64,000 nucleotides of DNA from an uncultured bacterium (GCA_903861045.1 CAIOST010000191.1:23116-87115), one strand, 5' to 3'; positions 29,482-63,300 are shown, numbered from the stretch's first letter. Translations and numbers: made by a program. The notes: generated by a model not told the origin, from the sequence alone.

Positions 29482-29516
29482 GTGGTCTTCTCCCCCGTCA
29501 CAATCGACTAGTCCGG

Positions 29517-30605: not shown

Positions 30606-30611
30606 ATTTTC

Positions 30612-31589: not shown

Positions 31590-31623
31590 CTTAGATCCCC
31601 TCCACGCCTTGCCGCAAATCCTC

Positions 31624-32925: not shown

Positions 32926-32932
32926 AGGACTC

Positions 32933-33532: not shown

Positions 33533-33624
33533 GTGTTATTATTGCCTGACACGCGCGGTCCATGGCCGCGATCAAAGGCCAGCCGGTGTTACGGTGCCGG
33601 CCCCCGACCCACCCCCGCCGCGCC

Positions 33625-33954: not shown

Positions 33955-33974
33955 GATGTTTCTACCTTTACCAG

Positions 33975-35243: not shown

Positions 35244-35442
35244 GATGCCACTTCCTTAGCCGGTCAACCCACAAGCGGGATACCCGCTCGGACCGGGGAA
35301 ATCAATACTCGGTTACCGGCGGAAACTCAAGCCGGAACCGCTACCCCCCGCACCCGCGTCTTGCCATTTTTCCCGGCTTGGAATATGGTGACAGCCGTAA
35401 CCGCCTTGGTCATCAACCTTATGGGGCGGACGGAGAGCCACC

Positions 35443-36309: not shown

Positions 36310-36333
36310 AGGCGGACAGGGGGCTCCGCGCAG

Positions 36334-36377
36334 AAAAAAAAGCGAGGCGGTCTTCGTGACCACCTCGCTGTTTTTTT
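36334..36377. terminator. bidirectional rho-independent terminator between convergent aroE and the giant gene
   Basis: A8 - AGCGAGG...CCTCGCT stem (7 bp, 15-nt loop) - T7. Confidence 0.6.
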
Positions 36378-36391
36378 GCCCCTATGCCGGT

Positions 36392-39300: not shown

Positions 39301-42300
39301 AGCGCTCATCCGCGGTAATGCCAACCTGGAAATCAAAGTTGAAATAGGTTACCAGCCCCCGCTCGTTCCCCGACAGATTCCGGGTTGCGAGACCGCTCAC
39401 CAACTTACCCTTGTCATCCAGGCCGGCCATTTCCGCAGAAGCTAACGCTCGGTTCCAGATCCGGATTTCGTCCATCTCACCGACCAAGGTCTCGCCGAAC
39501 ACGCAGGGACCGGCCGCCGCATTCACATACCAGAAGTTCATAGGATCCGGAATAATATTGGGGATATCCGGCATGTACATGCGCTCCTGCTTCGTATCCA
39601 ACAGGCCGTCCACGTAGAGATAACAAGCGTTGGCATCGCGAATGTACGCCACATGATGCCAATTACCGTCATTTACCGGGATCTCACCCTCAATGTCATT
39701 CACATTGAAATCAAGCCCAGACAGCCATTCGATGCCGTTGGCGCCGGTATGCCAGACGCCATACGCTAGTGCGTACCGCCCCAACAACGTCCCTTGCCCA
39801 GACAGGCCCAGGCAATAATTGAAGTTGTCGTCCGTCTCGTTGCTTTGACTACGACGGGTGATCAGACGCCCACCCCCAGCGGTGGTCTTTACCCAGCATT
39901 CCAACGTCCAATCCTCACGGAGCATATCGACTGAGTCCCCGTTGGGCAGCAGCGAGGTCGCCGTCTCTTTCAAATGCCCGTTACCACTCAATTGCAAACG
40001 GCCGGCCGTGGTGTTGCCACTCCCCACCAACAGGGTGGAAGCCCGGTTATCCGCGATGGACTGATCGTCCTGCGCGATCTTCCAGAGGCGGATATTGGTG
40101 AGCTTGCCACGGAAGCCCGGCCCACCGAAGATCACGTCACCGGGGCCAATGGCGGACTGCCAGCCCACAAACGTATTGGCCACCTTAACGCCATCCACGA
40201 AGAGAGCCAGTTCGTTATCCAAGCCGCTGTTACTGATCGTAAACCGGGCCGCCAAATGCACCCACTGGTTGGTCGCCAGCCTATTGCCCGGCAACAGGGT
40301 TGCCACCACGCTGGCTCCGCTCAGGTCCGTGTCAAAGGCCGCATACGGCACACCATTGGACAAGCCCAGCTCGTAGTTGCGCAGGTTCTTGTCATACGTG
40401 CGACGGCTAATCAGCGGCATAACCCCGGCCGCGATCGCATCCAGTTTGACGTAGGTCTCGATGGTCCACGCAGACATGCTGTGACGTGCGGTGAAGCGAT
40501 TATTGACCTTGTCCTGCACGGTCACGATGTTGCCGGTCGCCGCCCCCGTGAAGGCCAGCGTACGCAACATGAAGGGGCTGCTGGAGTCCGCCGGGTTCGT
40601 ATCCCCGCTCAACTCCGCGCCGTCGTTACGGCCGTCGTCGTCCGTATCGGCATTTCCCGGGTTGGTATGGGTCAGATCCTGTTCCACCCCATTCGAGATG
40701 CCGTCGCCATCGGCATCCTCATCGTAGTCGCTGATGCCGTTGTTGTTCGAGTCGGCCTGCAACGGATTGGTTCCCGCCAGATACTCATACAGGTTGCGCA
40801 GCCCGTCGCCATCCGGGTCGCCATCGGCGCTGTCATTACCAGACGCGCTAAACGGATCGAGCCCATTGGCGGTCTCCCACCAGTCCGGCAGACCGTCGCC
40901 ATCCGAGTCACCCGTGGTCTTCACTACTTCGCTCGTTGCCAGGACCGCCCCCGCCGAGAGTTGGCCGGCATAGCGCCAGTCGCGGCGCCAGTCGGCGGCC
41001 AGGGTGAAGTCTTCCACCGTCGTACCGCCATCGTCAAAGCGGAACCACCCCGCCAGACCGTTAACCACCACCGCGCCACCGCCGCCGCCACCGAGCTTGG
41101 GTAGAATGTTACCCACATTCAGGCGGCCGCCCGTGACGGTTTTACCCGCTAGGGCCGGATCGGGATCCACGTTATTCAGAATGGCGGCCTTCAACGCCGC
41201 ATAGCCCAGCCGGTTATCGACCGACAGCACCAGCGCCGCCGCGCCCACCACCTGCGGCGCGGCCATGGAGGTGCCGCTCGCCAGACCATTGGAGCGGCCC
41301 ATTTCCGAGCCACCCATCGGCAGGGTGCTCAGGATGTCCACGCCGGGCGCGCCCAGATCCACGGTCTGCGCCCCGTAGTTACTGAAGTAGGCCAGCGCAT
41401 CACGATTATCCGTTGCAGCCACGGCTATGATGTTGTCGAGGTCATACGAGGCGGGATAGGCCGGCGTCGCGTCGTTGTCATTCGCATCGTTAGCCGCAGC
41501 GGCCACGAACAAATGGTCGTTGTTGCCGGCGGTCAGAATGGCATCATACAGCGCCTGCGAGTACTGGTAGCCGGCCCAACTGTTATTGCTGACGCGTGCG
41601 CCCATCTTCCAGGCATATTCGATCGCGGCCAGCGCCGCCGACAGGCTCAACCCGCCTACGTTGTCAGCAATCTTTAGCGCCATAAGCTTGACGTTCCAGT
41701 TGACGCCGCAGAGGCCGGAGCCCTCGTTGCCGCTGGCGCCAATAATTCCCGCACAATGCGTGCCGTGGCCGATGAGATCATCCATCGGGTCGGCATCGCC
41801 GGCGCCAAAGTCGTAGCCGTAGACGTCGTCCACATAGCCGTTGCCGTCGTCGTCAATGCCGTTGCCTGCAATTTCGCCCGGGTTCTTCCACATGTTGTTC
41901 TTCAGATCCGGGTTGGTATAGTCAATGCCCGTGTCAATCACGGCCACGACCACCGAGCCCTTCCCGTGGCTAACATCCCACGCCGTCGGCGCATCGATAT
42001 CCGCACCGGCCACGCCGCCGCCCGGCCCATTGGTACCCAGGTTGCGCAGCGCCCACTGCTGGCGGAAGAGCGGGTCATTCGGGGTGGTCTCGCAGAGTTG
42101 CAGGGCGTAGTTCTGCTCGACATACGCCACACGGCTGTCGGCGCGTAGCGCGGCCATCTTGGTCGCCAGGTCACTGCCGTCGGTGATCCGCACATGCAGC
42201 GCGGGTATGATGTTAAAGCTCTTAACCACGCTCACACCGGCAAACGACTGCGCCAGCGGCGCGACCGCCAGGCGTCCACCGGTTGGCTTCAACCCGATGA

Positions 42301-45300
42301 TCAGCTCATCCGCCGAAGCACCCGTGGCGAGCACCTGTGCGGAGGAACTCGCCTGCTGGCGACTGACCGCGGCGCTGGCGGCGGCGGTCGTGTTGCTGAA
42401 GCTCACCTGCTGCCCGCCGGCCATCTGCCGGATGGCGTCCCCGTTGTATGCAAACGCTGCGATGCGCACATCGTCGAGCAAGCCTTCGAAGCCGCTGGCC
42501 ACACCCACGCCGTTGGCGCTTAGGCGGCCACCACCGATGGTCAGCTCACCACCCAGCGCCATGTTCGCACCCGCGCCGGTCACCGGCGCCACATAGACAT
42601 CCTTGCGCCAAGCCACGAGCTCGCCGTTCACAAACAGCTTCAGCGCATTCGAGGCGGCCTGGTACGAGGCCGCCAGGTGCGTCCACTTTTGAGCAGCGAT
42701 CTCATCAAAGTGGTCCATGCCGTTTAACATCACCGTGCCGGCTTGGTTAGCCTCCACACGCATCTCGCCGGGCACGCCGTTGGTCAAGGTGCTGTACCTG
42801 ATATACGGCCGCAGCACGCCTGCCCGGTTCGCCACACCCAGTTCGTAATTTACCAGCCCATCGGTGAGCGTGCGCGCCACGATAATGCCCTCGGCACCAT
42901 TCGTCGGCCACACCCAGGCCGCCAGCGTGAACTGTTCATCCATGGCATGACGGGCCTGCGGCGGAACCAGCACACGGGCATTGCCGTCCAACGACAAGGA
43001 CCGATTGACCATCGGGCTAAGCGAGCTGAGCGGGTCCGTCATGCCCGGCGCCAGAATCGATGTGCCCATGACCTCTTGGTAGTCAGGCGTTCCGTCATCA
43101 TCCGTGTCGGCGAGATCCGGCATGGTCCCGAGTTGCTGTTCCAAGCCATTGGAGAGGCCGTCGCCATCCGCATCCAGCTCAGCATCGGCCACCAACCCGC
43201 CAAAGGTGGCGGCGGCCAGCGGATTGAGCCGGGCCCGGTATTCGTAGTAATTGTTCAACCCATCGCCGTCGGCATCATCCGCGCCCGTGTACGTCGAAAT
43301 CGAGCCAAACGCGGCGATCTCCCAGGCGTCGGGTAGTTCATCCGAGTCCTGGTCCACAAACTGCGTTGCCGCGATAGGTGTATGGGTGCTAACCAGCAGC
43401 GCATCACCAATCAACTCGCCAGCATGCGCCCAGTTGTTCAGCCAGTCGGCCCGCGGGGCCGCAAAGTCCTCCACCCGGTTGATTGCCAAACCGAAGGCGT
43501 TGGTCGTGGAGCTGACGCCAAACGGCCCGTCGTCGAAGCGATAGTAAAGCGCGGGACCATTAACCATATTCTCGTAGGTTTGGTACGCGCCGGCCGACAG
43601 GCTCGCCACGCTCTCAGCCACCGCCCAGATGCGAACTTCATCCAGCAGGCCGCAGAAGCCTTCGCCCACCCGCACCACAGGCGCGGCGGAACCGTACGCC
43701 AATGACGGCAGCACTTCCACCGCGGTTTGCGCCGCCAGTCGCCCATCGAGGTAGAGGCGCAGCTTGCCGGCGTCGGCATCATAGACACCCGCCAAGTGGT
43801 ACCACTGGTTACTGCGGCTCAGGGTCGTCGCCCCCTGCGCGATCCGGTTATATAGCACACCGTGGAACACACCCGCCAACCGCACATACGGCAAGTGGTT
43901 GGTAAAGCCTAGCTCATAGTTAACCGTTGTACCCAGCCCGCGCTGGATCACGCAGCCATTGCCCGGGAAGGCCGGATCCGGATTCACCCACGCTTCCACG
44001 GTCCAAGAGCCATTCAACGCCAGACGGGTTTGATTGACAGGCAGTTTCACATACCCCGTTCCCGACAGCATGAGCGCTCCGCTCTTGGCCGGCGACAGCG
44101 ACGCATTCGGCAGCGTAAACTGATGCGCCGTGGTGCCACGCACCTCATCAAAGTCGGAGATACCATCATCATCGGTATCCGCCAGCAACGGATGCAGACC
44201 ATAGCGTTCCTTCTCCGCGTTGGTCAAGCCGTTGGTCGTTCCCATCGCCCAATAGACCGGCGCCAGCTCGCTCCCCAGCAGTTGCCCGGTAGGCTGCCAA
44301 ACCGGATCACGCGGATCCTGCCGCAACTTGCCATCGGCATCCATCAGGTAGATATAGGCCACCGAGACGCCGCTGCTCGAGAGGTCGCGCGCGCCATCTT
44401 GCACGCCATCGCCGAAGCTGTCGCTGCTGTACGGGTTCAAGCCATACTGGATTTCCCACCAGTCCGCCAGTCCGTCACCATCACTATCCAGCGTGCCCGG
44501 CAGCTCACTGGCATCCGTACCGAAGTTGCCGAAGAAGGTGGCGCCGCCCACCAGCGTGCCGGCATGGATCCAGTGGTTGGCCCAATCGGCAGTGACGGCC
44601 GCGTTCTGCACCTGACCACCCTGCGCCCAGCCCTGACGACCGCTGCCGTAGTAGGTGGCGGCGGCATAAATATGATTGGTTACGCGCGCGTCCGCGGCCG
44701 CCGTGTTGTCGTCGAAGTGGTACTCCAGCACCGGGACCGACCCGCCACGCACCACCACATCATCCAACATACCCGCAAAGCCACGACCGATACGTAACGC
44801 CGCCGGTCCCAGCGCCATCGTCAGCGGCCGCAGTTCCGTGATCGCGGCTGCGACCAGTGCCTGCGGAGCCACCGCACTCCCTTGGTAGAGGGAAAGCTTC
44901 CCGCTGGTGGCATCGAAGATCGCCCGCACCACGCCCCACTGATTAGCCGGCAACGCGGATAGCTCCGGCGCCGTCAGCGTCACATTGGTGGTGGGTGTCG
45001 CGAACTGAACAAACGGCACATAGTTGGACGTGAGGCCTAAGCAGTAGTTGTACCGTCCATCCGCCACCTGCCGCGCCACAATCTCTGCGGTGCCGCTTGG
45101 GCGACTGGTCGGGAAGACCCAAGCCGAGATATCGAACGAGCTCAACGCCTGCTGCGCGTCTGGTGCGGCCAGCACGTAGCTAGTGGGCTGCCCATCCAGC
45201 CGTAGCACGCTCGTCAGCGCTGGGCTCGCCGCATCAGCGCCGTCCATATCGTAGCGCACTTCTAGCGCATCCGTTAGGCCGTCGTCATCCGTATCCGCTA

Positions 45301-48300
45301 GGCGCGGATCCGTGCCGGCCGCCTGCTCGGCCGCATTATTCAAGCCGTCGCGATCGAAGTCCTCTTCCCCATCCGGCGTGCCGTTGCCATCCGTATCCTT
45401 CTCCAACGGATTGGTGCCACACCAATACTCATAGAGGTTAATCAGACCGTCATCATCCGTGTCGCTTGAACCATCAATCACACCATAGAGCTGCTGGAAC
45501 CAGTCCGGCAGGCCATTCCCGTCGGCATCGCGCAGACCATAGACCGGCGCCCAATCTGTGGCCGTAACGGCGTCGTTCTGGCCATCGGCGCCTGCGCCCG
45601 CCGCCACGTCATCCGCCGTGCCCCAGAGGCCATCCGCTCCCGGCTTCGCATCCGTGACGATATCCACTGGCCCCGTCAGCGCATAGGCGGCCTCGTTCGG
45701 ATGCTTCATATCCTCGATCGTGAGCCCGCCGTCATCGAAGTGATAACCGGCCACCAGCGAGACGGCCCCGTCTACAAACGCATGCATGTTCTCGCTGATC
45801 AGACCGCCACTCCGGGCGAGGTTCCAGAAGCGCAGATCGTCCAGCTTGGCCTGCGTAAAGCGATTGGTGGCTCCGCCCATCACCAGGGGAGCGTCCAGCG
45901 CGAGCGTGCCGCTCTGCACGTTGCGCGATTCATTCATCTCGCGTGCACAGATCAGCATGCCGTTCTCATGGATACGGATGGCCTTGCGTCCCTCACCGTA
46001 CACGAAGGCGAGATGAACCCAGGCGTTCGTCGGCAGGGCATTGGCCAACAGCTCGTAGGCGGCCCCACCCGCCCCGCGCACCATCAGGTACGGGCGGTTC
46101 GAAGAGATGCCCGCGACGAACGACTGGGTGCCGTTGACAAGCAGATACCGCGCGATGGCGCCACTCTGGCTGGCGCTGCCCAGCTTGACCCAAGCCTCGA
46201 TCGTCCACCCCTTGGCCGCATTGAAGCCAAGGCCCTCGTCAGAAATCGTCTGGTCGGACGATCCCGAGACCGGTGTGCCCGGCGGACTCATCGTGCCATC
46301 CGGCCAGGTGATATCGGTCGTATGCCACCACGCTTGCGCGTTGTTGCCATTACCATCCGAAACCGGTATGGACTGCGGACCAAACTCCACATACTTCTCG
46401 CCGGGTTGACCTTCCTTGATCAGCACGCGGACGCGCGAATTCGGTAGGCTGCGATTGCTATAATTATCCATCCAGACGTTGTACACGCCCGTGGTGGCAA
46501 AGCCACGTGCCACCGTGATGTTCTCTGGACCAGTTCCAGGAATGTCATCGATGTCGAGGAACGAGCCGGGAATACGCAGGTTCGGCCCGGCATCCGCCGG
46601 CAAGCCGGGTCCACGGGCTGTCCACCCCATATGCCGTCCCAGGGGATCCACCAGCCAGGTGTCGAGGTCACCGGGTTGATCCCATTCCTGCGTCACACGG
46701 ATATCGGCCGGTGCGAAGGTGCCAGTGATCGTAACGCTGGCGGTACCCACCAGTCCTTCCGTATCCACCGCCACCACGGTCAGTTTGTTTACCCCCGAGC
46801 GAATAATAGCCGTGTAATCAAACGCCCGCGCCGCATCCAGCGTGAGCTCGGCCACAAAGAGGTCATTATTGTACAACCGCACATGGCTCAACGGCGTCGT
46901 GGTTGCAACCGATCCCTGCACGGCGGTGTACCGTACGGGTATCTGCGCGCCATCCTGCGGCGCGGCAATCGTCACGACCGGGCCACCGCGCGTGACCGCC
47001 GTAAAGGTAAACCGGTCCGCTCCCGGCACCGTATAGCCGTTCGGCACATTAGTCGCGCCCAGCACTAGGCTGCGCGGAATCCACGGACTCAACGAGTCCG
47101 CCGGACCGCTGACGCGATTTGTCACGCCGTATGCGGCGAGGCTGGGCGACAGCCGAGCGCCCACTTCTTCGCCATCCGCGAACCCATCATCATCCGTATC
47201 GGTCAGCGCCGGATTCGTGCCGAAGATGTCCTGCTCGTCGCCATTGCTCAGGCCGTCCCCATCGAAGTCCTCGTAATAATCACCGAGGCCGTTACCGTCC
47301 GAATCCGGCTCCAGCGGATCCGTGCGGATCAGCGACTCGGTCTCGTCAGTCAACCCGTCAAAATCGTTGTCACGGCCGTTGTGGACGAACACGGGGATCT
47401 CATTGGTCCAAGTCCCCGACACCAGCAGCATCAGGTTGCTCGTCCAGTTAACATTCGGCGGCAGGGCGTTTGGCGTTAGCGAGATGCTGATCAGCGGCAC
47501 CTGCGGCAGGAACGTTACGGTTCCGGTCAGCCCTACGACACTGACCTGTAGAGCCAGTTCCGCCCCCACTTCCGTGATCGGACGGTGCAAATCAAACACG
47601 CTAGGTTGCCCGGCCAGCAACCGCACCGGCGAAACCTGCACGCCCTGCTGCCAGGTGGTGATCGTCGGCGGGATTACCGGCAGCGTCATATAGGCCACGG
47701 GATACCCCACGGCCATCGCCGTCACCAGCACGTTGGACGTCACGCTCACACCGGTCAGCGGGAAGTAACCATCGTCGAAGCCGGCCGGGATCGTCACCAT
47801 TTCCGGCACGGTTAGCGCTGCCGGGTCGCTCGAGAGCAGGTAGACGGCCTGTGGTTGCTCTTGTGAACCGACACTACGGTTGCGATGCACCTGCATGGTG
47901 ACCGTATCACCAGCGGCCACATTGCCACCGGTGTCGACATCCAACAGCAGGGTCAATCCCAGTCCGTTGTACACCGTCACCATGACCGTCTGCCCGCCGA
48001 TGGTCAGGACGCCATCGTGCAACCCCATACCTTCGGCCAGCGCCACACCGGTAATCGTAATGGTGGCATTGGTGGCACCTGCGGCCAGCGTCACGCTCTC
48101 GGCGTTAACCGTGAAGAGCGAGGTGTCGCTGCTCAAGACCTGATAGCTCATGTTCGAAGCTGCCAGGGAGGCCGGGCGCGAGATAGTCAGCGTGACCGAA
48201 TGTCCAACCTGCACCGTCACAGGCTTCGGAGAGATCGTCAGAACATCCGGTATGCAGGGATTGGAGCCTGCCAAGTACTCCTGGATATTGCTGATGCCAT

Positions 48301-51300
48301 CGCCATCGGGATCGCCATCCGCGCCCGCGATGCCCGAAGCGTCGTTGGGATTCAGGCCGCACCCGGTGTAGAGGTTCTCCCACCAATCCGGCATGCCATC
48401 GCCATCCGTGTCCACATCCACCACGAACGGCGCTTCGCCGGCCGCGAAGTTAGTGAAGGTTGCGCCCCCCACCAGGGTAGCCGCATGCCGCCAATTCTGC
48501 CGCCAATCGTGCCGGTAGTTGGTGGCAAAATCCTCGATCTGGCCGGTGAACCAACCCGCCTGCATGCTGGTACCTACCGTGCCGGCCTGACAGGAAGTGC
48601 CGTCGTCGAAGCGGTAATAAGCGACGAGACCCGACTCGGCGCCGGTCAACACGCGGGCTCGCAAGGCCGCAATCTCCTCGGCCGTACGCACCACGTTCCA
48701 GATACGCACTTCTTCCAGCACGCCGGCAAACCGTTGCCCGATGCGCTGTACCACCGGTCCCATACCGCTGGTACGGGGATTGTGAGAGCAGATCTTGTTG
48801 GTGACCTCGACGCCATTGGTATAGAGGCGCAAATACTGCCCCTGCACCATGTAGGTAGCGGCCACATGCGTCCAGTTCGTGCCGGCCGGGATTGCCAAGG
48901 GAGCGATCAGGGTGTTGGAGCCAAAGCCCACCACCGGACGGCGGTTGCCATCCAGACCGAGGAAGTAGTTGGTCACCCCCGGCTCAAGCTCGCGGTACAG
49001 GAGTGTGCAAGCGTCGTTAAGGCCAGCCACCGGACGGACCCAGGCTTCCAACGTGAAGTTGGTGACGCCAAAGCGCCGCTCGCCCAGCGTCGGCATCGCC
49101 ACATAATTCGTCGCCGAGCCGGATAGGACCAACCCGCGCGAGACCTGCGGGCTTAACGAGGAGCCCGGGTTGTAACCGGCTACCTTCTCTTCCAGATCGC
49201 TCTTGCCATCGTCATCGGTATCGCGCAGGCGCGGATCCGAACCGTGCGACTGCTCGTCGAGATTCTTCAGCCCGTCGCCGTCAAAGTCCTCGTCCCCGTC
49301 CAACACGCCGTTGTTGTCCGTATCACGGGCCTTGGGATTCGTGTCGCAGTAGTACTCGTAGAGGTTGCAGAGGCCATCACCGTCCTCGTCGCCATCCGGC
49401 TCAGCCACCAGCGAACCAAAGAACAACTGTTCCCACCAATCGGGCAGACCGTCGGTATCGCTGTCCACATCGCCGAACACCGGCGCGAAGCTGTTGGTGG
49501 TAAACGTCACACCGTGCAGCGCGTCCTGCCAATCCAGCGGATGCATGGCGTCTTCAGCCGTCAATCCGCCATCATCGAACGAGAACCGAGCCACCAAGCC
49601 CAAGTTGTTCGCCGTCAACGGCACGGACGACAAAGCCGCCACCGCATCGAAGTCGGCCCCTGGAGCGCCGTCATCCATGGCATAGCTATTTTGTCCGTTA
49701 TCGGTTAACCGCACAAACCGATAGATTTGACCTTTCGCCACGCTGGCGTCGATGTCGACGGCGGACAGCGCGCCACCGATGTTGCCGATCGTGACCCACT
49801 TCTCGCCGTCCTGGCTGATTTCCAGCGTCACGCCTTCGACCTCGCCATTACACCCCCACACGTACAGGTCGGGAGCGACGGTGCCATCGCCGATCAAAGC
49901 GTTGTCCGTGAACTGCAAGGTTACCGTACCACGCTGGCCGAGCGCCAACCCGTGTTGGGCGCCCGTGAGGTAGTTAATATAATCTGGCGCCCCCAAGACA
50001 GCGGCGGTATTGGTCCACTGGTTGTTCGGCCCCCCGTCACGGTAAGCTACCACCGCATCCGCAAATGCTCGATCACCCATTTGGACGTATACCCCGCTGT
50101 ACGTCGCCGGTGTGAACGTCCCCACGAATTCATTCGATTCGGCAACAGAGGCCGAGTACGCGGCGATTTGATCGGCGTAGGTCGCGATCTGGTCGAACGA
50201 ACGCACCACATTCCAGCAGCGCAATTCATCCAGATGACCTTGGACCCCCTCGCCCACCAGCAATGTCCCATCGCCCATCGCCGGCGGTAGCAGCGACTGC
50301 TGGGCCTGATAAGACTCGCCATTGATGTAGAACGACAGACTACGCGCTTCGGCACTCCACGTGCCTGCGAGGTGGATCCAGGTATTGGACGGTAGCGACC
50401 GCGTGCCACCAGCCTGCACCAGCAATCCGGTCGCGGTCTCAAATTGTACCGCAGGGATGTTGTGCGTTACGCGTAGACCCAACGTCAGGCGGCCGGCCGC
50501 ATTCACGTGGGCCACCAGATTACCCGTCTCGTTGGTCGAGGCCAGATTGATCCAGCATTCCACCGTCCAATTCGTCAGATTGAAGCGATCCGCGCTGCCC
50601 ACGCTCACGCCGGCCACAGGATCTCGTACACCGGTGCCCGTCAGCACCAGACTGCGGGATACCGCCGGGCTCGCCGCACAAACCGGGCTGGTGATACGGC
50701 GCCCGTCCGCCTTATAGATCGATGGATTGACTTCGTCGCCATCCGACACGCCATCGTCATCGGTATCAGCGTTCAACGGGTTCGAACCCAAGGCGAACTC
50801 AGCGGCATTGGAGAGGCCGTCGCCATCGGAATCTTCCTCGCCATCCACGAGGCCGTCATGGTCAGAGTCCGGCATGCGTGGATCGGTGCCGCACAGGTAC
50901 TCCTGCAAGTTGGAGAGGCCATCGCCGTCCAAGTCATACGAGGCGGCATACTCCGGATGATTAACCGTTTCGATACGGTCGGGATCGAGGTTGAAGCGTT
51001 GCTCGAACCAGTCCGCCATGCCATCGCCGTCGGAATCCAGCCGGAAGGGCGTCTCGTTGGCCCATGCCGCCACATTCGCCACATAGTTCGTCAGGTACTG
51101 GCGATCCATGTAGGTGAAGTGAATCGCGGTGGTGGCGGAGAAAGTGCCGGCATAGTTGCCATCCCGCAGATGGACAAAGTCCTCCACCTGGCCACTCCGG
51201 TTGGCCGGATCCATGCCGTCACACATCGGCCAGTAAGCTGCCAGACGGGAAGAAAGCACTTGGATCGGGGAATACGCGATCGGCGCATTGACCAGTGAGC

Positions 51301-54300
51301 CGTACCGAACGCTGGCACCTTCGACAAGGGTGCCATAGATCACTCTGGCCGCTGTATCCTCCACAAACTTCGCCCCGCGCAGGGAGACGTTGTCGAAGTC
51401 GAAATACGAGATCAGACCAGGCACGGACGGTAGAATCTTCGTCAGGCGCTGCGCTTCGATCTCGCTTCCGGTCAACCCCCGATCGAAGATGCGGATTTCA
51501 TCCACATCGCCCACGAACTTCTTACCGACGGTTAGCAGGCCGGCATTCGTCGCGGCATAGTAGGGTTGGTCGGTTTCATTCCAGCCGTAATAGCCATTAC
51601 CGCCCCAAGACGGCCAATACCCATACCAATAGGAGTAGCCATAGTAATCCCAGCCATTGTTCAAGCCATAATTATTGTTATTATTGGCTAGATACTTACG
51701 CGGCACGGCCGGGTCACCCGCAGCCATATGCCACGTGACATCGCCGATGGCCGGCAGGTTGTTCTTCGGATCAATGGTGATCGCATCCTGGGCGATACCG
51801 TCCACGGACATCGCAGCATCTTTGCCGTCGAACGTAAACGCCATGAAATGCCATTCGCCATCGGCCACGGTGATATCGCCTTGCAGGGTGGCGGTAGCCC
51901 AGCGATAGACCGCCTCATCCCACCCCCAATAATAACCCCAACCCGCATCCACACGGGCCTGGAAGGCGAAGGTAGCTTGCGCAAACCCATCGGCATCCAC
52001 GCTCAAGCGGTAGTTGGAAATCGGCTGGCCATCATCACCGCTACCCGAGTCGCGATCGATGATCGTACCCGCCTGCGTGGTCTTGAACCAAGCTGACACG
52101 GTCCACTGATTCAGCGCTACATCCCGCTGGTCGCCGCGCGTCATCCATCCGCTACCATCGAGCGCGAGTACGCCCAGCGCCGCGACATCCTCCCCGAAGA
52201 GCAGCGTGCGGTCGCGCAGGCGTGCGATCTCGCCGTACGGACGGGCTACATTCCAGATGCGCACTTCCTGCAGGTCACCGCACAGGTTAGTGGCCATGAC
52301 CAGCGGCCGATATTGGCGGCCGAGCGCCGGCGTGGCCTCCGTGATCACCCGGCTGAGGGCATTCCCCTGAAAGGAAAGGTCTAGCTTGGTCTCAGCCTCG
52401 CCCGCCTCTTTCCCCAGCCGCGCCGTCAGCGTTGTCCAAACATTGGTCGCAAGGACGCGATCCGCGCCCGCCTCGACCTTGTACTCAACGCCGCGATCCG
52501 ACTCGAAGCGGGTATACGGCAGATTGTTCGTACCAATGCCCAGTTCGAAGGTGACATAGTCAGCCCCCCCAACGCGAGCCCGGCGCTGGACAAGAATGGC
52601 ATTCTTCCCGGTGGCGGACGGCAGTTGGTTCAACCGCACCGTGGCCTCGACCGTCCAAGTGGCGAGGTTAAAGCGCTCCCCGACCTCATCGGTGCCGGGC
52701 ACGCTTGCCGGCACCGTGATCGTGCCGTTGCCATTTTCGTTGCGTATATAGCGCATCACATACGGCGAGAGCGAATTCAGCGGATCTGTCCCCATGGCGA
52801 CTTCTTCGCTATCCGTCAAGCCGTCATCATCGGTGTCGCGCCGGCCGGGATTGGTGCCCCGGGTCTGCTCATCGATATTGGACAACCCGTCACCGTCGCT
52901 ATCCTTGAGCGCATCCGACACCCCGGTCGCGCCCGTATTCACAGCATGCGGATCCGTGCCCGCCAGATACTCGTACAGGTTGCTCAGACCATCGCCATCG
53001 GGGTCGCCAGCGGGGCCGTTTTCGCCCTTGGTGTCATACGGATTCAACCCATGCGACGCCTCCCAGCCATTGGGCATGCCGTCCTGATCATAATCCAAAA
53101 GGGTTGGATTTATCGGTGCCCCGAGCGGCGCATCTACGCTGCGCGCATTCCCCAGCAGCGTGCCGGCATTGGCCCAACCGCTGTTCTGATCGGAGGGTTT
53201 CGTGAAATCCTCAACCTGTCCGTGGGACCAAGTCGGGCACAGACTGGTGCCCGTTGCGCCGCCTTGATAGGCCGTACCATCGTCGAACCGCAGGTACGCA
53301 ATCATCGTGCTCGGCGGTTCCAATTGGATCTGACGCAAGGCCCCGAGGCTGCGTGCACCCGGATATAGCGACCAGATGCGCACCTCATCCATGTAGCCTG
53401 CGAACCCGGCACCCACCGTCGTGACTGGGAAGCCCAGACCGTTCAGCGCCGGACGCTTGGTGGTGACCATGTCCGCTACAATTTCGCCATCCACTTCCAG
53501 CCAGAGACGGCCCGTGTCGGCATCAAAGGCCGCCAACACATGCCGCCACTCGTTCAAGTAAAGTGGGTTCGTATAGGTCAGGGACACGCTGGCGGACTTG
53601 TCGTAGGACGTGAACTGGGCTTGTACCTGTCCGCTCGCACTAAGCCCCAGACTGTAGTTATAGGCATTGCTGGCGGCCAGCGAAGAGATCAGCTTCGCGC
53701 CCGAAGTCCAACCGGTGGGACAAATCCACGCCTCGACCGTCCACGAGGGCAACTCAAAGCGCGCCTGACTGGGCAACTGTACGCCCCCCGTCGCAGCCCC
53801 ATCCAAATGTAACACGCGGTCCACCAGCGGACTGGTGGAGAGCCCCGGATTCCAATGATTGAGGACCTCGGTCTGGTCATCAATCCCATCATCATCGGAG
53901 TCGGCCAGCCTGGGATCGGAGCCAAAAACCTGCTCCGTGGCGTTATCGAGTCCGTCCCCATCGTAATCTTCGCGATTGTCCGGGATACCGTCGCTATTTG
54001 AGTCGCGACTGCGCGGATCGGTACCAGAGAGATACTCATAGTAGTTAGACAGGCCGTCCCCGTCGAGATCGCCACTGCTCGTGATTTCCGGATGATCCAG
54101 CGACTGGGAAGAATTCGGGTCCAGATTATAAAGAGCCTCGAACCAGTCCGGCATGCCATCGCGATCCGAATCAACCCCCAGCAGGGAGTCGTCGTCCGTG
54201 ACATCTACGAAGTGGATGGCATTGGTATGAGAGAAGGTACCGGCGTAGGAAAAATCCATGCGGTGGATGAAATCCTCGACCTGCCCCCTGGTCCGACCGG

Positions 54301-57300
54301 CGTATGCGCCATCGTCCATTGGCCAATAGCCGGCCAGTTTATAACCCACCACCTCGATCGGCGAGTACTGCACCGGCGCATTGACATTAGCGCCATTTCC
54401 GACCGCAACCGCATCAATCAGATAAGTAAAGGCCCCCGTGCCCGTCTTATCCATAATGGAATCGGGCTTCGCCACGCCCACATCATCGAAGTCAAAATAG
54501 GCGGCCAGATGCGGGTCGGTGGGCGAGGCCTTGCGGTACTGGGTGGCGGCCACCGCATCCACACTCATCCCTTGATCGAAGACGCGGATCTCATCCAAAA
54601 TCCCGACAAACTTGTTACCGATGGTAAACAACCCATCCTGCGTGGCCAACGAGAAGGTGTCGGCCGTATCCGGATTCAGGTTATACCCGAAATCATACCA
54701 ATACCAATAGTAGTAGTACGGATTGTAGTTGCCGAACTTGGTATAGCCTCCAGGGCGGTCCCCTTCATTCGGCGCCATGTGCCAGGTTACGGCTGCCATG
54801 TTCGGCAGATCGTTTTCCGTATCCATCGTGATCACATCCTGAACCATGCCATCGACATACAAGGCGGCATCCTTGCCATCGAAGGAGAAGGAAACGAAGT
54901 GCCAGTTGCCATCGCCCAGCGTGGTGCTAGAGGTCAGCTTGACGGTCGCCCAGCGCGCCATATTGTTGTTGCCATACCAGTAGTACCACCCCCTGTTAGG
55001 CTGGACGTAAGCCTTGAAGTCGAAGGAGGCCTCGACATTGCCCTCCGGCGTGATGTCCACCTTATAGTTGTAGATGGGTTTCGCATCGTCGGCCAAGCCG
55101 GCTTCGCGCTGTACGATCGTACCGCCCCGCGTGGTCTTGAACCAGCTCTGGATCGTCCAGCGTGACAGCCGGACCTTATCCTGCGTGTTGCGCTGCAGGA
55201 AGCCATTCGTCAGGGAAAGCACGCCCAAGGTCGCCACATCCTCACCGAAGAGCAGCGTGCGGTTGCGCAGTTTGGTAATCTCGGCATCGGTACGGCCCAC
55301 CGTCCAGATGCGAACTTCATCCACGTCGCCCCGCAGGTTGGTGCCGATCGCGAGCGGAACGTTCTGCTTGCCGAGCACGGGGTGCACATCCGCCGGCAAC
55401 TGCGTGGCCGTCCAGACCGTCTGATAGAAGAGGTCCAACTGACGGTGCTGATCCTGGCCACCGCTCGCCAAACGCGCGCTCAGCGAGACCCATTCACCCG
55501 TGACCATCGGCCGCCACGAGCTAACCTTGTATTCCCGACCCAGATCACTCTGGAACCGGGCGTAGGGCAGGTTGTTCGTGTCAATCCCGAGTTCAAAGGT
55601 CACATACCCGGACAAACCGGCTTTGCGCTGGATCAGAATGACGTTCGTCTTGGACTCGGAAGGGAGTTGACGCAACCGTACACCGGCCTCGATGGTCCAG
55701 GTCTCCAAGTTGAACCGTTCGCCCGTTTCATCCTTGCCAGGAATGATGCCGTCAACCGTCAACACGCCGCTGCCGGTCTCATTCTGCACGTAGCGCATCA
55801 CATAGGGGCTGATCGAACTACGCGGATCGGTGCCCATATTGAGCTCGTCGCCATCCGAAAGTCCATCATCATCGGTATCTACCATATCTGGACGGGTCTG
55901 ATGCCGCTGCTCTTCGGCGTTCGAGAGACCGTCGCCATCCGCATCTTCCAGTCCGTCCACCGTGCCATTGCCATCGCTGTCCACGATGCGCGGATCCGTT
56001 CCGGCCCAGTACTCGTACAAGTTGCTCAAGCCATCACCGTCCGGATCCCCGTTGGCCCCATCGGCACCACCGCTGCTGCGAGAATTGAGGCCGTAAAAGA
56101 CCTCCCACCCATTCGGCAACCCGTCCCCATCGCTATCACCCAGAGAATCACGGACCGGGCCGGAAGCTGGATTTAGCACCATCGCCGCGCCCCCGCGTAG
56201 CGTGCCGGCATGGCGCCAGCCGGTCTTCCAATCCTGCGGACACATAAAGTCTTCTACCTGTCCCGTATTCCACCCGACCTTGCGGCTGGTATTCGTACTG
56301 GTGCCATCATCGAAGCGCAGGTAGGCGACTAAGCCCGTACTCATCCCCGTGATGGGTGTTGCCAGCTTGGCCAAGCTGGGGGCCGGCCGGCAGACATTCC
56401 AGATCTTCACCTCATCCAGATAGCCGGCAAAGCTCTCACCTACCACCGTGCTGATAGGTCCAACTCCGTTCTGGGCGTCCGTTTTCGAGACGTATAGCTC
56501 CTGCTCCACCACCCCGTTCACAGTAATGTTGAGATAGCCACTCCCCGAATTGAACGACGCGGCCACATGCGTCCAGACGCCCGTGCTCAACGCGTTGGAA
56601 TAGCAAATACCCACATCGGCTACGTGATTGCCCGCCGTGAACTTGGTCACGAGTCGTCCAGCGGTATCCATGCCGAGGAAATAGTTCCAGACACCGGGTT
56701 CGACGCTGCGACCGATGATGGTCGCGGTGGTGGCGGGCAGGCTGGTCGGGCATATCCAAGCCTCGATGGTCCAGTTCGTCGCAGCGAACCGCAACTGCGG
56801 CGGCAACTCGACATAACTGGTGCTGGCTCCATCCACGACGAGGACGCGATCCAGCAGTGGCGCTAGCGCGCTAGCCGGGCTGGTGTAGAGTTCGTCACCG
56901 TCCAGCACGCCGTCATCATCCGTATCCGGTAAGCGCGGGTCTGAACCTTCGACCTGCTCATCGCCGTTACTCAGCCCATCGCCATCAAAGTCCTCTACGG
57001 CATCCAGCACGCCATCATTATCCGTGTCCCCAGCCATGGGATTCGTGTCGCTATAGAATTCGTACAGGTTGTTGAGGCCGTCGTGGTCCGAGTCGCCCGT
57101 CGGAGTAGCGCCATCCGCAAAGTATAATTTCTCCCACCAATCGGGCAGGCCGTCGTGGTCCAGATCCAATTCCCCGGCGAAGTCCGCAAAGGTACTGGAA
57201 GTGACGTTCGTGGTGCTGATCGCATACTGCCATTCCAGCCGGTGCGTGAAGTCCTCAGCCGAGGTGCCGCCGTCGTCAAACGTATACCAAGCTAGCGGAC

Positions 57301-60300
57301 GATCCGGCAGCGTCGAGGAGATCGCAAAGATGGCTGAAACATCCACGCCGGGAGCCTCATCCCCATAGTTATTCCCGCCGGTATCCGAGAGTCGCACATA
57401 CGCGAACTGCTGGCCTGCGGTCGAGGGCACCTGGTCAATATCCACCGTCACACAACCATTACTCCCGAGGCCAAAGGTGCCCATGCGGGTCCAGACAATG
57501 CTGTCCGCGCTGATGTCCACTTTGACACCCGCTATAGCCCCCCCCATGAGGATCGCGAGATCGGGACTCCCGTCGCCGTTGCCAACCAGGAAGTTGTCCG
57601 TGAACTTCACCACCAGCGAACCACCTTCGCCGAGGCTAACAAATTGGTTGGTGGCGTCCGCCCAGTACTCGGGCACGCCGATGGCCAGCGCCGGATTGGT
57701 GTGTTTGTTAGTTGGGCCACCTTCGACATAGCTCACCACTTCGTCAGCGAAGGCGCGGTCCCCCAGCACGACGGTCATCAACCCGAAGGTCTTGCGTTGC
57801 ACATCCTCGGGCAGCACGATGCCGCCCTGCGAGCCGAAGCCCAACAAGCCGCCCATGCCATCGGCGATATCCGCCGCCGTCCGATCCACACCCCAGATCG
57901 CCACGTTATCCACGTGGCCGATGAGGCCCCCACCGATGACGGTCTGGCCAGTGCCTTGCGCACAGGCGGATATCACCGTCTGTGCCTGGTAGGCGCAGCC
58001 GTTGATATACAACACCAGCGTGTGCCGGTCCGGATCAAAAACGCCCGCCAGGTACGTCCAGGTATTGGCTGGCAGGGCCGCGGCATTCGTGCCGCCGGCG
58101 AAATAGTGCATCCCTGCCGCTGTCGTAAACTCGACCACCGGTTGATTATTCACCACACGCAGGGCGAAGTTCGTCTGGCCCGTCGTCAGCGTGCGAGCCA
58201 CCACGGTGCCGGTCTCGTTACTGCTGGCCAACTGCACCCAAGCCTCCAGCGTCCATGCCCCGACGTTGAAGCGCTCATCCTGCGGCACGGTGACGACCGT
58301 GCCATCCAGGACCAGAGAGCGCTGCACCAGCGGACTGCGGGCGTCCACCGGACTCGTGATCCGGCGCCCATCCGCCTTGACTACCAACGGATTGACCTCG
58401 TCGCCGTCCCCTACGCCATCATCGTCCGTGTCCATCAACCCGGGATTCGTACCGTACAGGTCCTGCTCCTCACCATTGCTCAGGCGATCCCCATCGGCAT
58501 CCTCGTCATAGTCACTGACCCCATCGCCATCCGTATCCCAGAAGAACGGATCCGTGCCCGCATAGTACTCTTGCAAGTTCGTCAGCCCATCGCCATCGGC
58601 ATCCGTTTGGCCATCCGAAGAACGGTTAGCGTCCAACCCAAAGTACATCTCAAACACATCTGGCATCCCATCGCCATCCGCATCCAGGCGCTGCGGATGC
58701 CCGGCCGGCAGCGACAACATCCAGTTGTAGAAATTCGGCACGTTGGTGGTGGCGCGCGACAAGTCCAACGGGTTGAGCGACACGAAGTCAATCGCGTTGG
58801 TGGTAGGCACCAGCGTGCCGCGGTATGCCGGTTGATCGGTATGGAGGAAATCCTCGACCGCGCCGACCCGGTTGGTGCCCCGCCCATCATCCATCGGCCA
58901 GTAGCCTGCCAACTCACTGCGCAAAACATCCAGCGGACGCATCAGCACCGGCGCATTCGCATCCGTATCCACCGGCAATTGGGCGCTGCCCATTAGCACA
59001 CCGAAGTTGCCACCGACCCGTGCATCTACATAAGGCAGACTGGTCGCTTTGATATTATCGAAGTCGAAGTAGAGCGCCAGCGCGTCCAGACTGGGCCGCT
59101 TGCCCAGTTCCGCCGCCACCTCGGCCGGCGCGCGTACACGACTATAAATCGCCACTTCGTCGATCAGGCCGCTGAAGCCACTGCCCATGGTCAGGCTCCC
59201 GCTGCCTGTCAGCGCCACGGGGGCCCCCGCCCAACCTAAGATCGCTGCCGGATCCGTGCCCCAAGTAATGCGCGGATCGAATACATTCGCGGGCGGGAAG
59301 CTCTCGCGCGCCATGATCCGGCCATTCACGACGACACTAATTTTGTTCCCGTCGAAGCTCACCATCAGATGCGCCCACTCATCCTGCTTCAGTTGCGCCG
59401 CCTGCGCCGTGAGCGTAAAGCTCGCCGGCACGTTGAAAACTTCCACCGTCGGCTCAGCCAGCAGATTAGCCAGCGGATCCGCCAGCAACGGCGGAGCCAC
59501 TTCCTGATACACGGGCGCGTAGAACCCAATGGTCAGCATGGGCTGACCGATGCCTGACAGGCCCAGTTGGTAGGCCGTCAAGTTATCTGAGTCCCGCCGC
59601 ATGATCACGCCGCCACCCGCCGCCGGCTTAACCCAAGCCTGCAACGTCCAGATCGGCAGCGCCACATCGGACGAATCGAACACGAGCAGATCGCCCCCCG
59701 ACGACGACAGACTACCAGCCCGCGCCACATCCGTACCGAAGGTCAAAACCTTGTCGCGCAGAGCCGCGATCTCATCATTGCCGCGCACCGTACGCCAGAT
59801 GCGCACTTCATCCAGATCACCCGCCAGATTCTTGGCCAGAATCAGATCGCCAGACTCCTTGCCGCTAGCCGGTAGCACATTCGCGATGACACGCGCGGCT
59901 TCGTTGGCACCCACAAAGACCGACAGCTTAACCGCGCCGCCCTCCTCGAGGGCTCCGAACCGCCCGGCAATGCTTATCCACGTATTAGTGGCGATCGCTA
60001 GCAGCGACTCCGCCTTATATTCGTTGCCGGCGGCATCTTGGAAGCGCACATACACATGACAATTCGTCGTAACGCCCAGCTCAAACGACACCAGACCGTT
60101 TGGCTCGCAATAGCGCCCGATCACGACCGCATTATTAGTCGGCGCTTGCTGCAAGCGGATCATGGCCTCCAAGGTCCACTGGGACAGGTCAAACCGACTG
60201 CCATTCGGATCCAGGCGACTGATATGGCCAGGTACCGCAATATACCCCGTGCCATCATTATGGATATAGCGCATCACGTACGGCGAACCCGGATCGACCG

Positions 60301-63300
60301 GATCGAAGCCCAGCGCCGTTTCCTGCTTATCCGAAAGCCCATCATCATCCGTGTCCGGATTACCCAAGTCCGTACCGTAGAAATCCTGCTCGTCGCGGTT
60401 GACGATCCCGTCGTTATCCGCGTCCTCCAGCCCGTCCGCCACGCCATCCTCATCACTATCCCCCTCGAGCGGGTTGGTGCCAGCGCGGTACTCGGAGATG
60501 TTCGACAACCCGTCACCGTCCGCATCGCCTTCGCGATCCGCGGCATCAAACGCGTTCAACACCTGCACGGTTGTCGCCGGCGTAGTAGCATTGGTGGAAC
60601 CGCTCGGCACGCCATGCGCGTACTGGTAGGCCAACTCCCAGCCATCCGGCAGACCGTCACCATCCGAATCAACATCAATCGTCAGATTTGCGGCCCGCAG
60701 GATGGCATCCATCTGGCTGCCGCGCAACCCGCTAGTAAACAGCCCGGCCGTGGTCTGGTCCGCCACGCGTGCGCCGTTGCGCAGGGTCGCCGCATTGGCC
60801 CAGCCGTTGCGCCAGTCCTGCGCATACGTGGTCACAAAGTCTTCCACCTCATGCCCGACGACGCCCGAGCCACTGACGCCATTGGTGTTGGCACCATCAT
60901 CAAACCGGTAATAGGCCACCAGTCCGCGCTCGGTCCCACGCAAAGCGACGGTGCGCTTGCTTTCAATCAGGCTCGCCGAGTTATTGGTGCTCCAGACCCG
61001 GACTTCGTCGATCAAGCCGACAAACCCGGCACCCACGCGCTGCTGCACGGCGCCCACCCCGGTCGCCAGCGTCTGCTGCGCCAGCGTGACACGCCCGGCT
61101 TCCGCGCCGTTTACATACAGTCGTAACTGGTGCGTGCCACACTCATACGTTGCCGCCAAATGCGTCCAAGCACTGGTCGAGACGCCCTCGGTCAGTGTGA
61201 GCAGCGGCGCCGACGCATCGCCATAGCCGCAGAACGGCTGGCGGTTGGCCGTCAACCCGAGGTAGTAGTTCATCACATCGGTGGCGACCTGACGGTAGAT
61301 CACGAAGCCGTTGGTGCTCCAGGTGTTGCTTGGCCACACCCAAGCTTCCACCGTCCAGTCCGTCAGGCCAAAGCGCGCCTGATCCGGCAGCTCAAGGTAG
61401 GCCCCCGCACCAGGCAGGCTCAAAGCCCGATAGGTCAGCGGATCCAAACTATTGGCCGGATCCGAACCGTTCTGTACTTCGACGCCATCCGCAATGCCAT
61501 CATCGTCGGTGTCCAAATAACCAGGATCCGTACCGAAGAGCGTCTGCTCATCGCGGTTGCTAAGGCCGTCGTGGTCCTCATCATCGGCCCCGTCTTTGAG
61601 GCCATCGCCATCGCTGTCCGGGTTCCTGGGGTTGGTGCCTGCATAGTACTCGAAGAGGTTGCTCAACCCATCGTTATCCAGGTCGCCATCTGGGCCATCC
61701 TCGCCCGACATGTTGCCTGGATCGAGATGGTACTTAACTTCATACCAGTCCAGCATGCCGTCGCCATCGCTATCCGGCACATACGGCCAGTTGGTGGGCG
61801 TGAGATCGATGAAGCGCACGTGGTTCGTGTCGATCTTCCGGGGGGAGGTGCCGGGTGTCGCACCCGCATAGGCCTCGAAGCTATAGGGCTCTACGCCGAG
61901 TCGATAGGTGAAGTCTTCCAGCAGTTGACCGCCATCATCAGCCGGGAACAGACCGACCAGGGCCACGCGCTGGAAGGTCAACAACGGATCGTAGGTGATC
62001 GGCGGGACATCCACGCGCCCCGTCATATTGGTCGCATCACCGATAAAGATGCCGTACTCCGACTCCGGATCGCGTACCACTGCGCGTTCATCCGCGACCT
62101 CCCGCAACTGGAAGTCGAAGTTGAAGTAGCTGATCAAGCCGCGCTCGGTGCCGGTCAGATTGTGGCTGCCCACCCCGCCGACGACATTGCCACGCTCATC
62201 AAATGTAGCCAACTCCGGCGACGGCAGCCCACGGTTCCAGATCCGGATCTCATCCATGGCACCGCTAAGATCCTCGCCAAAGATGCAGGGGCCGACCATG
62301 GCCCGCACCCATGCGGCGCCGACCCAGCCGACCGGCGGTTGCACCACCAACAGGCGTTCCTGCGTGGCGTCGAGCATGCCGTCGACATACAGGCGACAGC
62401 GCTCATTGTCGCGCACATAGGCCACGTGATGCCACTGGCCGTCGTTCACCGCGATTTCGCCGTGGATGTTATTCACATTGAAGTTGACTTCGATGTGGTC
62501 CAAAACCGGGATCGCATCAGCATTAAAGACCCAGACTTCCCACTCTGCCGCGAAGCGACCGAGCAGCGTGCCGTCGTCCTCAATGGCCAGGTAATAGTTG
62601 AAATCATCATCCGTGCGCTCGCTGATATTGCGCCGCAGGATCAGGCGGCCAGCCGCATCGGTCCGTACCCAGCACTCGAGCGTCCAGTTTTGGCGCAATA
62701 GATCCATCGGATCGCCATTGGACTGGAGCGTGGTCGAGTTCTCCTTGAGATGACCGCCGCCGTTGACCTCGAGGTAGCCTGCCAGCGAAGCCACGTTGCC
62801 GAATAGCAGGTTATGGCTCATGAACTCGCGGATCTGCAGATCCGACTGGGCCACCTTCCAGATCCGGATATCCCGTAGACAACCCGCAAAGCCGGCCGAA
62901 CCCAGCGTCAAGTCCCCGGCCCCCTGCACCGCGACCGCCGTAATCAAGCGACCCGCTACCGGCGTCCCATTAACCAAGAGCGTGGCCAGCCCTTTCACGG
63001 CGTCGAAGCGGCCCACCAAGTGGCTCCACTCGTGGACCGGTAGCGCTGTGCCACCTACCAACCAAATCGTCGTGTTGTTCGTCGCACCATTCTGCGCCAA
63101 ATCGGCGTCAAACCGCAGATAGGGCCGCCCGTTGGTCAACCCGATTTCATAGTTGAGCTTGCCCGTCAGCTCGACCTTGCGGCTGATGATCGGGCAGAGG
63201 CCGGCGGTCGCTGAATTCGTGAACTCAGGCCGGACGGCGGCCTCGATGGTGAAGGTGTCGAGGCTCAGGCGCGCGGTACTCCGACCATTGATCTTATCGG

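Follow-up and report, generated by a model that had tools for sequence, protein, structure and literature searches.

The window analysed here is a stretch of 64,000 nucleotides from an uncultured bacterium (GCA_903861045.1 CAIOST010000191.1:23116-87115), and our subject is a pair of LamG domains in a giant protein encoded on its minus strand. In both domains, here called A and B, two loops have a composition dominated by Tyr, Trp, Gly and Asn; within a domain the short loop is numbered 1 and the long loop 2. A BLAST comparison of the giant protein with itself resolved five super-repeats of ~1,000 amino acids (aa) each, and domains A and B belong to units 3 and 4. The giant open reading frame (ORF), the two domains and the four loops lie as follows, with scores for the domains taken from our own family hidden Markov model (HMM).

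36392..63949, minus strand: giant ORF in a frame that is open to 64000; 9,185 aa counted from the first GTG (ORF list)
54473..55255, minus strand: LamG domain A, aa 2899-3159; second LamG of super-repeat unit 3; family HMM 312 bits; Pfam Laminin_G_3
54665..54733, minus strand: long loop A2, GNYNPYYYYWYWYDFGYNLNPDT, aa 3073-3095; from the translation
54956..55003, minus strand: short loop A1, QPNRGWYYWYGNNNMA, which includes GWYYWYGNNN, aa 2983-2998; at the tip of a long beta-hairpin
51380..52204, minus strand: LamG domain B, aa 3916-4190; second LamG of super-repeat unit 4; family HMM 298 bits; Pfam Laminin_G_3
51557..51697, minus strand: long loop B2, KYLANNNNNYGLNNGWDYYGYSYWYGYWPSWGGNGYYGWNETDQPYY, aa 4085-4131; from the translation
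51899..51952, minus strand: short loop B1, VDAGWGYYWGWDEAVYRW, which includes GWGYYWGW, aa 4000-4017; from the domain alignment

Both domains exceed the gathering cut-off of 27.6 bits for Laminin_G_3 (PF13385), with 32.7 bits for domain A and 50.4 bits for domain B. They are paralogues with 48% identity, and their long loops occupy equal positions in the alignment. The initial annotation of this DNA had quoted two aromatic peptides at about 54655-54755 and 51535-51700, and both were found exactly as quoted, on the minus strand and in frame. It had also placed them at the same site of paralogous LamG domains, just before a conserved strand. The alignment bears this out, since loop A2 ends 13 residues and loop B2 12 residues before the FVG(I/D)(L/V)DEIR(V/I)FD strand. 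The short loops lie ~85 residues upstream of the long loops in their domains. The description of the loops as consisting of Y/W/G/N only was overstated, because their share is 70% in loop A2 and 72% in loop B2. When Tyr and Trp were counted in windows of 25 residues, loop A2 reached 11 and loop B2 13; whole-protein shuffling, repeated 500 times, gave a mean maximum of 6.7 and no value above 10. Among all windows of the giant protein, loops A1 and B1 rank third and fourth in Y/W content; the initial annotation had overlooked them. The Tyr plus Trp fraction of the loops is 0.36-0.43, Lys and Arg are absent, and net charges are -2, -2 and 0. Since the remaining two coding-strand frames contain stop codons within both long loops, the loops are not a local frame error. 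The loops exist, are compositionally extreme and occupy homologous positions in LamG domains.

To place the loops on the fold, we considered structure predictions made by AlphaFold2 with an input alignment of 20 LamG domains of the giant protein itself. The mean predicted local distance difference test score (pLDDT) was 80.1 for domain A (model m8565b8d2c753), with a beta-sandwich core mostly above 90, and 80.9 for domain B (model mda0378a52f19), with a predicted template modelling score of 0.80; the models have ~14 strands. Foldseek against the PDB returned, at probability 1.00, the LamG of PAPP-A, neurexin LNS, agrin LG3, pikachurin LG3, laminin LG and pentraxins. Sequence and the predicted two-sheet jelly-roll fold thus agree in assigning both domains to Laminin_G_3/LamG. 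In the structure prediction, a check proposed in the initial annotation, the insert-bearing domains have confident LamG cores from which the loops are excluded, and the long loops were modelled at pLDDT below 50 (residues 168-178 and 180-194 of domain A, residues 176-198 and 200-211 of domain B), with no confident loop shape. The short loops, at the tip of a long hairpin, reached pLDDT values of ~59-80 (A1 ~59-67).

When a profile of the 20 domains was aligned to neurexin LNS6, the long-loop gap fell between 'VIERYPAG' and 'RQLTIFNSQATIIIGG' and the short loop on 'FNVGTDD'; the alignment is weak (3.3 bits for the stretch). In chains 2r1b and 3mw2, a 30-residue insert of splice site 4 (SS4) lies exactly between AG and RQLT, and the structured PDB relatives 4qvs and 4dqa have extra residues at the long-loop site too. 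The loops had been called unusual as LamG insertions; this holds for their composition and length but not for the site, which is the usual one of the neurexin SS4 connection and of 4qvs and 4dqa. Inserts at SS2 and SS4 of neurexin tune ligand binding (PMC6856630), and the neurexin calcium site falls within the neuroligin-binding interface (PMC2570956). The latter paper gives the calcium-site residues once as D137, V154, I234 and N236, and elsewhere as D137 and N238; we read this inconsistent 234/236/238 numbering as I236 and N238. By residue count, V154 would then lie in 'FNVGTDD' and I236/N238 in 'TIFNSQ', just after SS4. The short loop site thus appears to align with the loop that helps to hold the neurexin Ca2+. 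If this mapping holds, the two loop sites are neighbours on the canonical LamG ligand rim, and the aromatic loops would be adjacent there and exposed.

Another element of the same region is a (G/A)DD..P(I/L)(Y/S)NY motif before the fifth strand (e.g. aa 3971-3976 and 2953-2958), which is kept in almost all sequences of this LamG subtype whether or not they carry aromatic loops. The conserved (G/A)DD pair sits in the loop next to the aromatic sites and, in the weak alignment, is not aligned with neurexin D137. In LNS domains of neurexin, laminin and agrin, the Ca2+ site on the rim draws on residues of the beta4-beta5, beta6-beta7 and beta10-beta11 loops, the last two of which would correspond, by that alignment, to the aromatic sites. 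The (G/A)DD motif could mark a place on the same rim where these domains have a metal or a ligand site in common.

Relatives were sought with an exhaustive profile search of 1.84 billion representative proteins, which yielded 3,378 matches, mostly multi-domain proteins of thousands of residues. The initial annotation had suggested looking for LamG domains with similar Y/W-rich inserts, and among the 150 best representatives exactly one was found, P0001; other Y-rich windows were ordinary strands or unrelated regions. P0001 is a protein of 313 aa from JGI sample 3300009874 (contig Ga0131789_10018807, 1,523 base pairs (bp), 49% GC), with 49% identity to domain B and 44% to domain A. It is aromatic at both loop sites and differs in sequence there ('GDDDGWYWDWNNGE' / 'SRGDDDGWYWDWNNGE' and 'DNYNSYYYGWYYSNYRAGY' / 'DNYNSYYYGWYYSNYRAGYLNQQNLTY'). 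On its contig (L005, 1-1523), an unrelated open sequence precedes the LamG domain, which just before the expected YFDFD motif passes into sequence without homology and meets a stop ~35 residues on; the contig may be chimeric, or the locus a pseudogene or a read-through after a frameshift. A word-indexed protein search was empty both for domain B as the sole query and for an alignment to which P0001 had been added, although P0001 is in that collection as its own cluster representative, and the loop peptide gave nothing significant against PDB sequences (best E-value 1.6). No protein longer than ~7,800-8,000 aa was among the search results. Very long proteins are perhaps missing from the collections, in which case close relatives of the giant gene would be hidden.

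At both loop sites, the connections are short and non-aromatic in ten further sequences assigned to this LamG subtype by alignment. Nine of these are representatives (29-38% BLAST identity to domain B; P0034 has ~32% to domain A) and the tenth is a genome locus, L002. The genome scan that detected L002 (32% identity) also detected L003, both distant relatives without aromatic loops, and a metagenome scan added at least one distant locus (L004). Within the giant gene itself, three paralogues (aa 381-613, 1402-1635 and 7973-8208) have short non-aromatic loops at both sites, and one of them provides an internal control.

59045..59746, minus strand: paralogue of the LamG subtype without aromatic loops (internal control), aa 1402-1635; family HMM 203 bits

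The ten subtype sequences and three paralogues that lack aromatic loops point to a lineage-specific gain on a variable loop, and on present sequence comparisons the aromatic loops mark a small clade made up of units 3 and 4 of the giant gene and P0001. Composition was kept across ~50% divergence while sequence was not, which argues for selection on composition. The proposal of such selection in the initial annotation is thus supported, by the paralogues and by the 49%-identical P0001.

At the DNA level, the gene has a GC content of 61.3%, rather than the ~68% first given, and the long loops have 42-43%. The local AT-richness of the loops was accordingly confirmed, but it fails as an independent sign of selection, since the amino acids predict it. 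Compared with the value expected from the amino acids and the gene's own codon usage, loop GC was 0.465 and 0.478 against 0.445 and 0.521, and the choice between TAC and TAT and between AAC and AAT did not differ between the loops and the rest of the gene (Fisher p = 0.16 and 0.21). The AT-richness therefore results from Tyr, Asn and Trp codons under normal codon usage and is no separate evidence of selection. A foreign or recent insertion, as AT-richness might suggest, was rejected, given that codon usage and GC at third codon positions were not significantly different and GC was as expected.

The cores of the long loops (54695-54716 and 51617-51638, with TGGTAT-type codons) are alike at 20 of 22 nucleotides in blastn, far above the identity of their flanks. 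This match may reflect common descent, or it may be inflated because Tyr and Trp have so few codons. Loop A2 contains an ATACCA tandem of 2.5 copies (Tandem Repeats Finder), which is TGGTAT on the coding strand. Loop B2 contains a weak direct repeat of 21 nucleotides (51577-51597 and 51622-51642; 71% identity, 45 nucleotides spacing) that encodes NGYYGWN and YGYSYWYG, and this hints at growth of loop B2 by duplication of a ~15-residue unit. With only the 2.5-copy ATACCA tandem and one weak 21-nucleotide pair, an origin of the loops from tandem repeats could account for a minor part of them at most.

These repeats are also the place to consider whether the loops are tolerated low-complexity expansions without a specific function, in which a permissive loop grew by slippage or internal duplication. 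The TGGTAT tandem in loop A2 and the weak repeat in loop B2 would fit such growth, as would the variable length of the loop site, from near zero to ~50 residues across the subtype, and the lack of a confident loop structure in AlphaFold2. However, a tolerated expansion would have to account for an equal bias in two separate loops per domain, and for the retention of this bias in three domains at 44-49% identity while the loop sequences changed. The DNA repeats are moreover weak, so that the expansion is not recent, and exposed runs of Tyr and Trp are costly for solubility and synthesis. On balance we consider functionless expansion improbable, though still deserving of weight.

The same DNA evidence bears on an artefact, that is, an assembly or frameshift error, and on variable regions made by a retroelement. 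Repetitive giant genes assemble poorly, and the AAY-rich, A-rich DNA of the loops superficially resembles template regions of retroelements. Nevertheless, the annotated frame alone is open in the loops, and the two long loops are unequal in length. An independent assembly is available in a metagenome contig of the European Nucleotide Archive (ENA; ERZ27313541 k141_12962), which holds the adjacent aroE and on which the gene was called at 13,402 aa with the contig end still cutting it. Its ORF is open across the loop coordinates, and the fetched part matches positions 28800-46309 of the window at 99.994% identity in the overlap. P0001, from a different organism with 49% GC, has equivalent loops. 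The loops were rejected as targets of a diversity-generating retroelement, because a sensitive blastn search of all four against the 64-kb window gave no template-like copy and best matches of at most 22 nucleotides. Nor was a reverse transcriptase present among ten sampled flanking ORFs, which encode housekeeping proteins, the other ORFs not having been scanned. Artefact and retroelement-driven variation are effectively excluded.

We propose that, on the LamG ligand rim, the two loops of a domain combine into a single aromatic binding patch, which would serve in an adhesive role of the giant protein and for which a glycan is the most likely target; we put the probability of this reading at roughly 0.5. 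According to this proposal, two variable rim loops (the beta6-beta7 hairpin tip and the beta10-beta11 connection, in neurexin-type numbering) were expanded in one lineage and would together create one exposed, flexible patch of aromatic and amide side chains. Rings of Tyr and Trp could stack on sugar rings or on other flat or hydrophobic surfaces, Asn and Asp could provide hydrogen bonds, and Gly could provide flexibility. The patch would then be the adhesive site of a giant secreted or surface protein that bears TSP3 repeats and subtilase domains, with a polysaccharide or a glycan-rich cell surface as its probable target. Such a target is favoured because Laminin_G_3 belongs to the concanavalin-like clan, which has carbohydrate-binding domains (PMC11573180). 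The chemistry suits a binding site, since carbohydrate-binding pockets are enriched in Trp above all other residues (PMC11632809). The initial annotation had considered the loop composition typical of carbohydrate-stacking or sticky surfaces, and likeness in composition to mfp-3S, to complementarity-determining regions (CDRs) of antibodies and to carbohydrate sites agrees with that. A broader 'sticky' role would also be compatible with the proposal.

Several observations weigh against a binding patch. No carbohydrate-binding module (CBM) family matched in Pfam at E <=1 for domains A and B or at E <=0.01 for the whole protein, and no homologue of this LamG subtype has a known ligand; the binding role is a prediction. 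The loops are acidic or neutral, whereas the mussel peptide mfp-3S-pep has a charge of +1. The conservation argument rests on three loop-bearing domains, and low-complexity expansions can persist without function. The strand mapping on neurexin depends on a weak profile alignment and on our own counting of residues. Finally, with loop pLDDT below 50, the models do not establish the shape, exposure or mutual contact of the loops.

A more specific form of the binding patch can be drawn from analogy. The Tyr/Trp/Gly/Asn paired loops might act as a 'minimal-alphabet' adhesive paratope on LamG, a wet adhesive of broad specificity that would have converged with mfp-3S and with synthetic Tyr-code binders. 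We regard this as speculative and rather unlikely as it stands. If it were true, a protein of more than 13,000 residues could stick to many surfaces or cells and not to one glycan.

The composition that suggests adhesion would also suit loops that bind each other, within or between molecules or cells, as 'stickers' that build a matrix, a condensate or a cross-beta assembly and do not recognise a foreign ligand. In favour of such self-association, the composition is like that of the self-coacervating mfp-3S-pep (PMC9845597), a run of five Asn followed by Tyr and Gly has a prion-like look, and the core of loop B2, YGYSYWYGYW, alternates Tyr with small or aromatic residues in a manner that suits a beta-strand with an all-Tyr face. 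Two loop-bearing domains ~1,000 residues apart in one chain would furthermore give valency. Yet there are only two such domains among ~21 LamG domains in the window, the LamG rim binds partners of another kind, and segments of 23-47 aa that are anchored at both ends in a folded domain disfavour amyloid. Self-association thus seems to us a minority possibility.

Exposed aromatic residues raise a further alternative, namely that the loops are membrane-interface anchors that enter the lipid headgroup region of the producer's outer membrane or of a target cell, as the aromatic loops of fusion proteins and of some toxins do. Trp and Tyr favour membrane interfaces, and the loops are flexible and devoid of Lys and Arg. 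For giant proteins of bacteria, attachment to other cells has been suggested (bioRxiv 10.1101/2023.11.21.568195). On the other hand, a net negative charge combined with many Asn and Gly residues is unusual for lipid-binding loops, an aliphatic component is absent, and the searches made found no LamG precedent. We consider membrane anchoring unlikely.

In the giant protein as a whole, Pfam recognised within the window ~21 Laminin_G_3 domains (553.7 + 371.4 bits for the whole protein, scored in two halves), many bacterial TSP3 calcium-binding repeats and one Peptidase_S8 domain, and no other family scored above its gathering cut-off in the sampled domains.

41168..41956, minus strand: Peptidase_S8 (subtilase) domain of the giant protein, aa ~7332-7594; Pfam PF00082, 171 bits

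The first in-window residues of the giant ORF are similar to the end of this downstream subtilase domain. Together with the open frame, this resemblance indicates that the gene extends upstream of the window, where the ENA contig k141_12962 holds 12.6 kb of it, and a second S8 domain probably lies just beyond the window edge. Among the super-repeats, the closest pair (aa 2560-3528 and aa 3574-4581) has 44.8% identity, and the remaining units have 32-33% to that unit. A domain of ~190 aa (GDRAFADEVVSY..GGP..) occurs twice, at 57275-57847 on the minus strand (aa 2035-2225) and at ~aa 4610-4790; it follows the third LamG of the unit and has no Pfam match at E <=0.1. NCBIfam, run on one super-repeat (50207-53230, minus strand), gave sub-threshold matches only: the gliding lipoprotein CglD and the cohesion protein MtsD, both via TSP3 repeats, and the Amuc_1099 pilus-like family (40.7 bits, cut-off 50). 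These are weak hints at a cell-surface or cohesion context.

The genes that flank the giant gene are housekeeping genes (dnaX, recR, aroE and those for EF-G, ETF and an ammonium transporter) of a bacterium with ~61% GC. Neighbouring proteins, with aroE and recR among their genes, recur in NCBI, JGI, Logan and ENA on 6-7 contigs of up to 112,852 bp, the longest one being from NCBI.

The subtilase domain brings in the idea that the loops are sites of cleavage or modification. Subtilase domains of the same chain, with their preference for large uncharged residues, would then act on the exposed loops, or the loops would undergo Tyr oxidation or cross-linking, so that the exported protein is processed or cured. 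An S8 domain is indeed present in the same polypeptide, with probably a second one upstream, and the mussel analogue relies on conversion of Tyr to Dopa (PMC9845597). However, no tyrosinase, peroxidase or other modifying gene was present among the housekeeping neighbours in the window, and a nick in a loop of a beta-sandwich would free no fragments. This idea is pure inference, and we hold it to be very unlikely. If the alternatives to a binding patch are ordered by the weight that we give them, self-association comes first, followed by tolerated expansion, membrane anchoring, cleavage or modification and, last, artefact or retroelement.

On the sequence evidence, the adhesin-type LamG architecture and the insertion site would be known, and the composition and length of the loops would be new. 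If the proposed aromatic patch works, giant surface proteins of bacteria can specialise single LamG modules by rewriting canonical variable loops, and a near-pure aromatic and amide alphabet suffices for this outside the immune system and animal adhesives. In that case a domain of 260-275 residues would be a testable handle on the opaque LamG/TSP3 giant proteins of uncultivated bacteria, and reagents for adhesion or glycan binding might be built on it as a small natural scaffold. Should the loops be no more than tolerated low-complexity expansions, they would amount to a curiosity.

We finally compared the aromatic loops with known systems; the literature searched, the coverage of which was incomplete, contained no report of LamG loops of this composition. 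In composition, the loops come very near to the mussel peptide mfp-3S-pep (GYDGYNWPYGYNGYRYGWNKGWNGY), a self-coacervating wet adhesive with a Tyr plus Trp fraction of 0.40, against 0.36-0.43 in the loops (PMC9845597). The share of Y/W/G/N is 0.84 in mfp-3S-pep and 0.70-0.72 here, and the peptide and loop B2 have motifs in common (GYNGY/GNGYY, WPY/YWPS and GWN). Whereas mfp-3S is a small, free and basic animal protein in which Tyr is converted to Dopa, the loops here are acidic, tethered at both ends in a bacterial domain and accompanied by no evident modifying enzyme. The likeness is a compositional analogy and not homology.

CBMs and concanavalin-A-like lectins share with the LamG domains a beta-sandwich from which Trp and Tyr can stack on sugars through CH-pi contacts (PMC6152320, PMC11632809). 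Known modules, however, use a small number of aromatic residues, each exactly positioned on a face or in a cleft that is ordered, while here 8-17 aromatic residues stand in a probably flexible loop. Antibody CDRs and minimalist Tyr binders (the 'four-amino-acid code') resemble the aromatic loops in being hypervariable loops of a beta-sandwich that are rich in Tyr, Gly, Ser/Asn and Asp. Tyr, Gly, Ser and Asp dominate CDRs, and Tyr is the main recogniser, such that minimal Tyr codes suffice (PMC10601506, citing Fellouse 2004 and Koide & Sidhu 2009). The scaffolds differ, a LamG jelly roll here and an Ig fold there, and no diversification mechanism was found in the window. The proportions differ too, since Trp plus Tyr amounts to 36-43% here and Tyr to a reported 4-17% in CDR-H1, CDR-H2 and short CDR-H3 (PMC10601506).

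The fold is shared with the LNS domains of neurexin and agrin, in which splice inserts (SS4 of neurexin LNS6, and SS2) by alignment occupy the same inter-strand connection as the long loop. In neurexin and agrin, the connection between the '..VDG..' and '..iGG..f.G.i..' strands takes inserts of 8-30 residues at the ligand rim, and these change binding. Here, by contrast, the loops are fixed in the gene and not alternatively spliced, reach up to ~45 residues and occur in a bacterial host; SS4 of neurexin is mixed in composition and partly helical, whereas the loops described here consist mostly of Tyr, Trp, Gly and Asn. By analogy, the function-modifying inserts in the rim loops of neurexin and agrin would be the closest mechanistic precedent for the paired aromatic loops of domains A and B.

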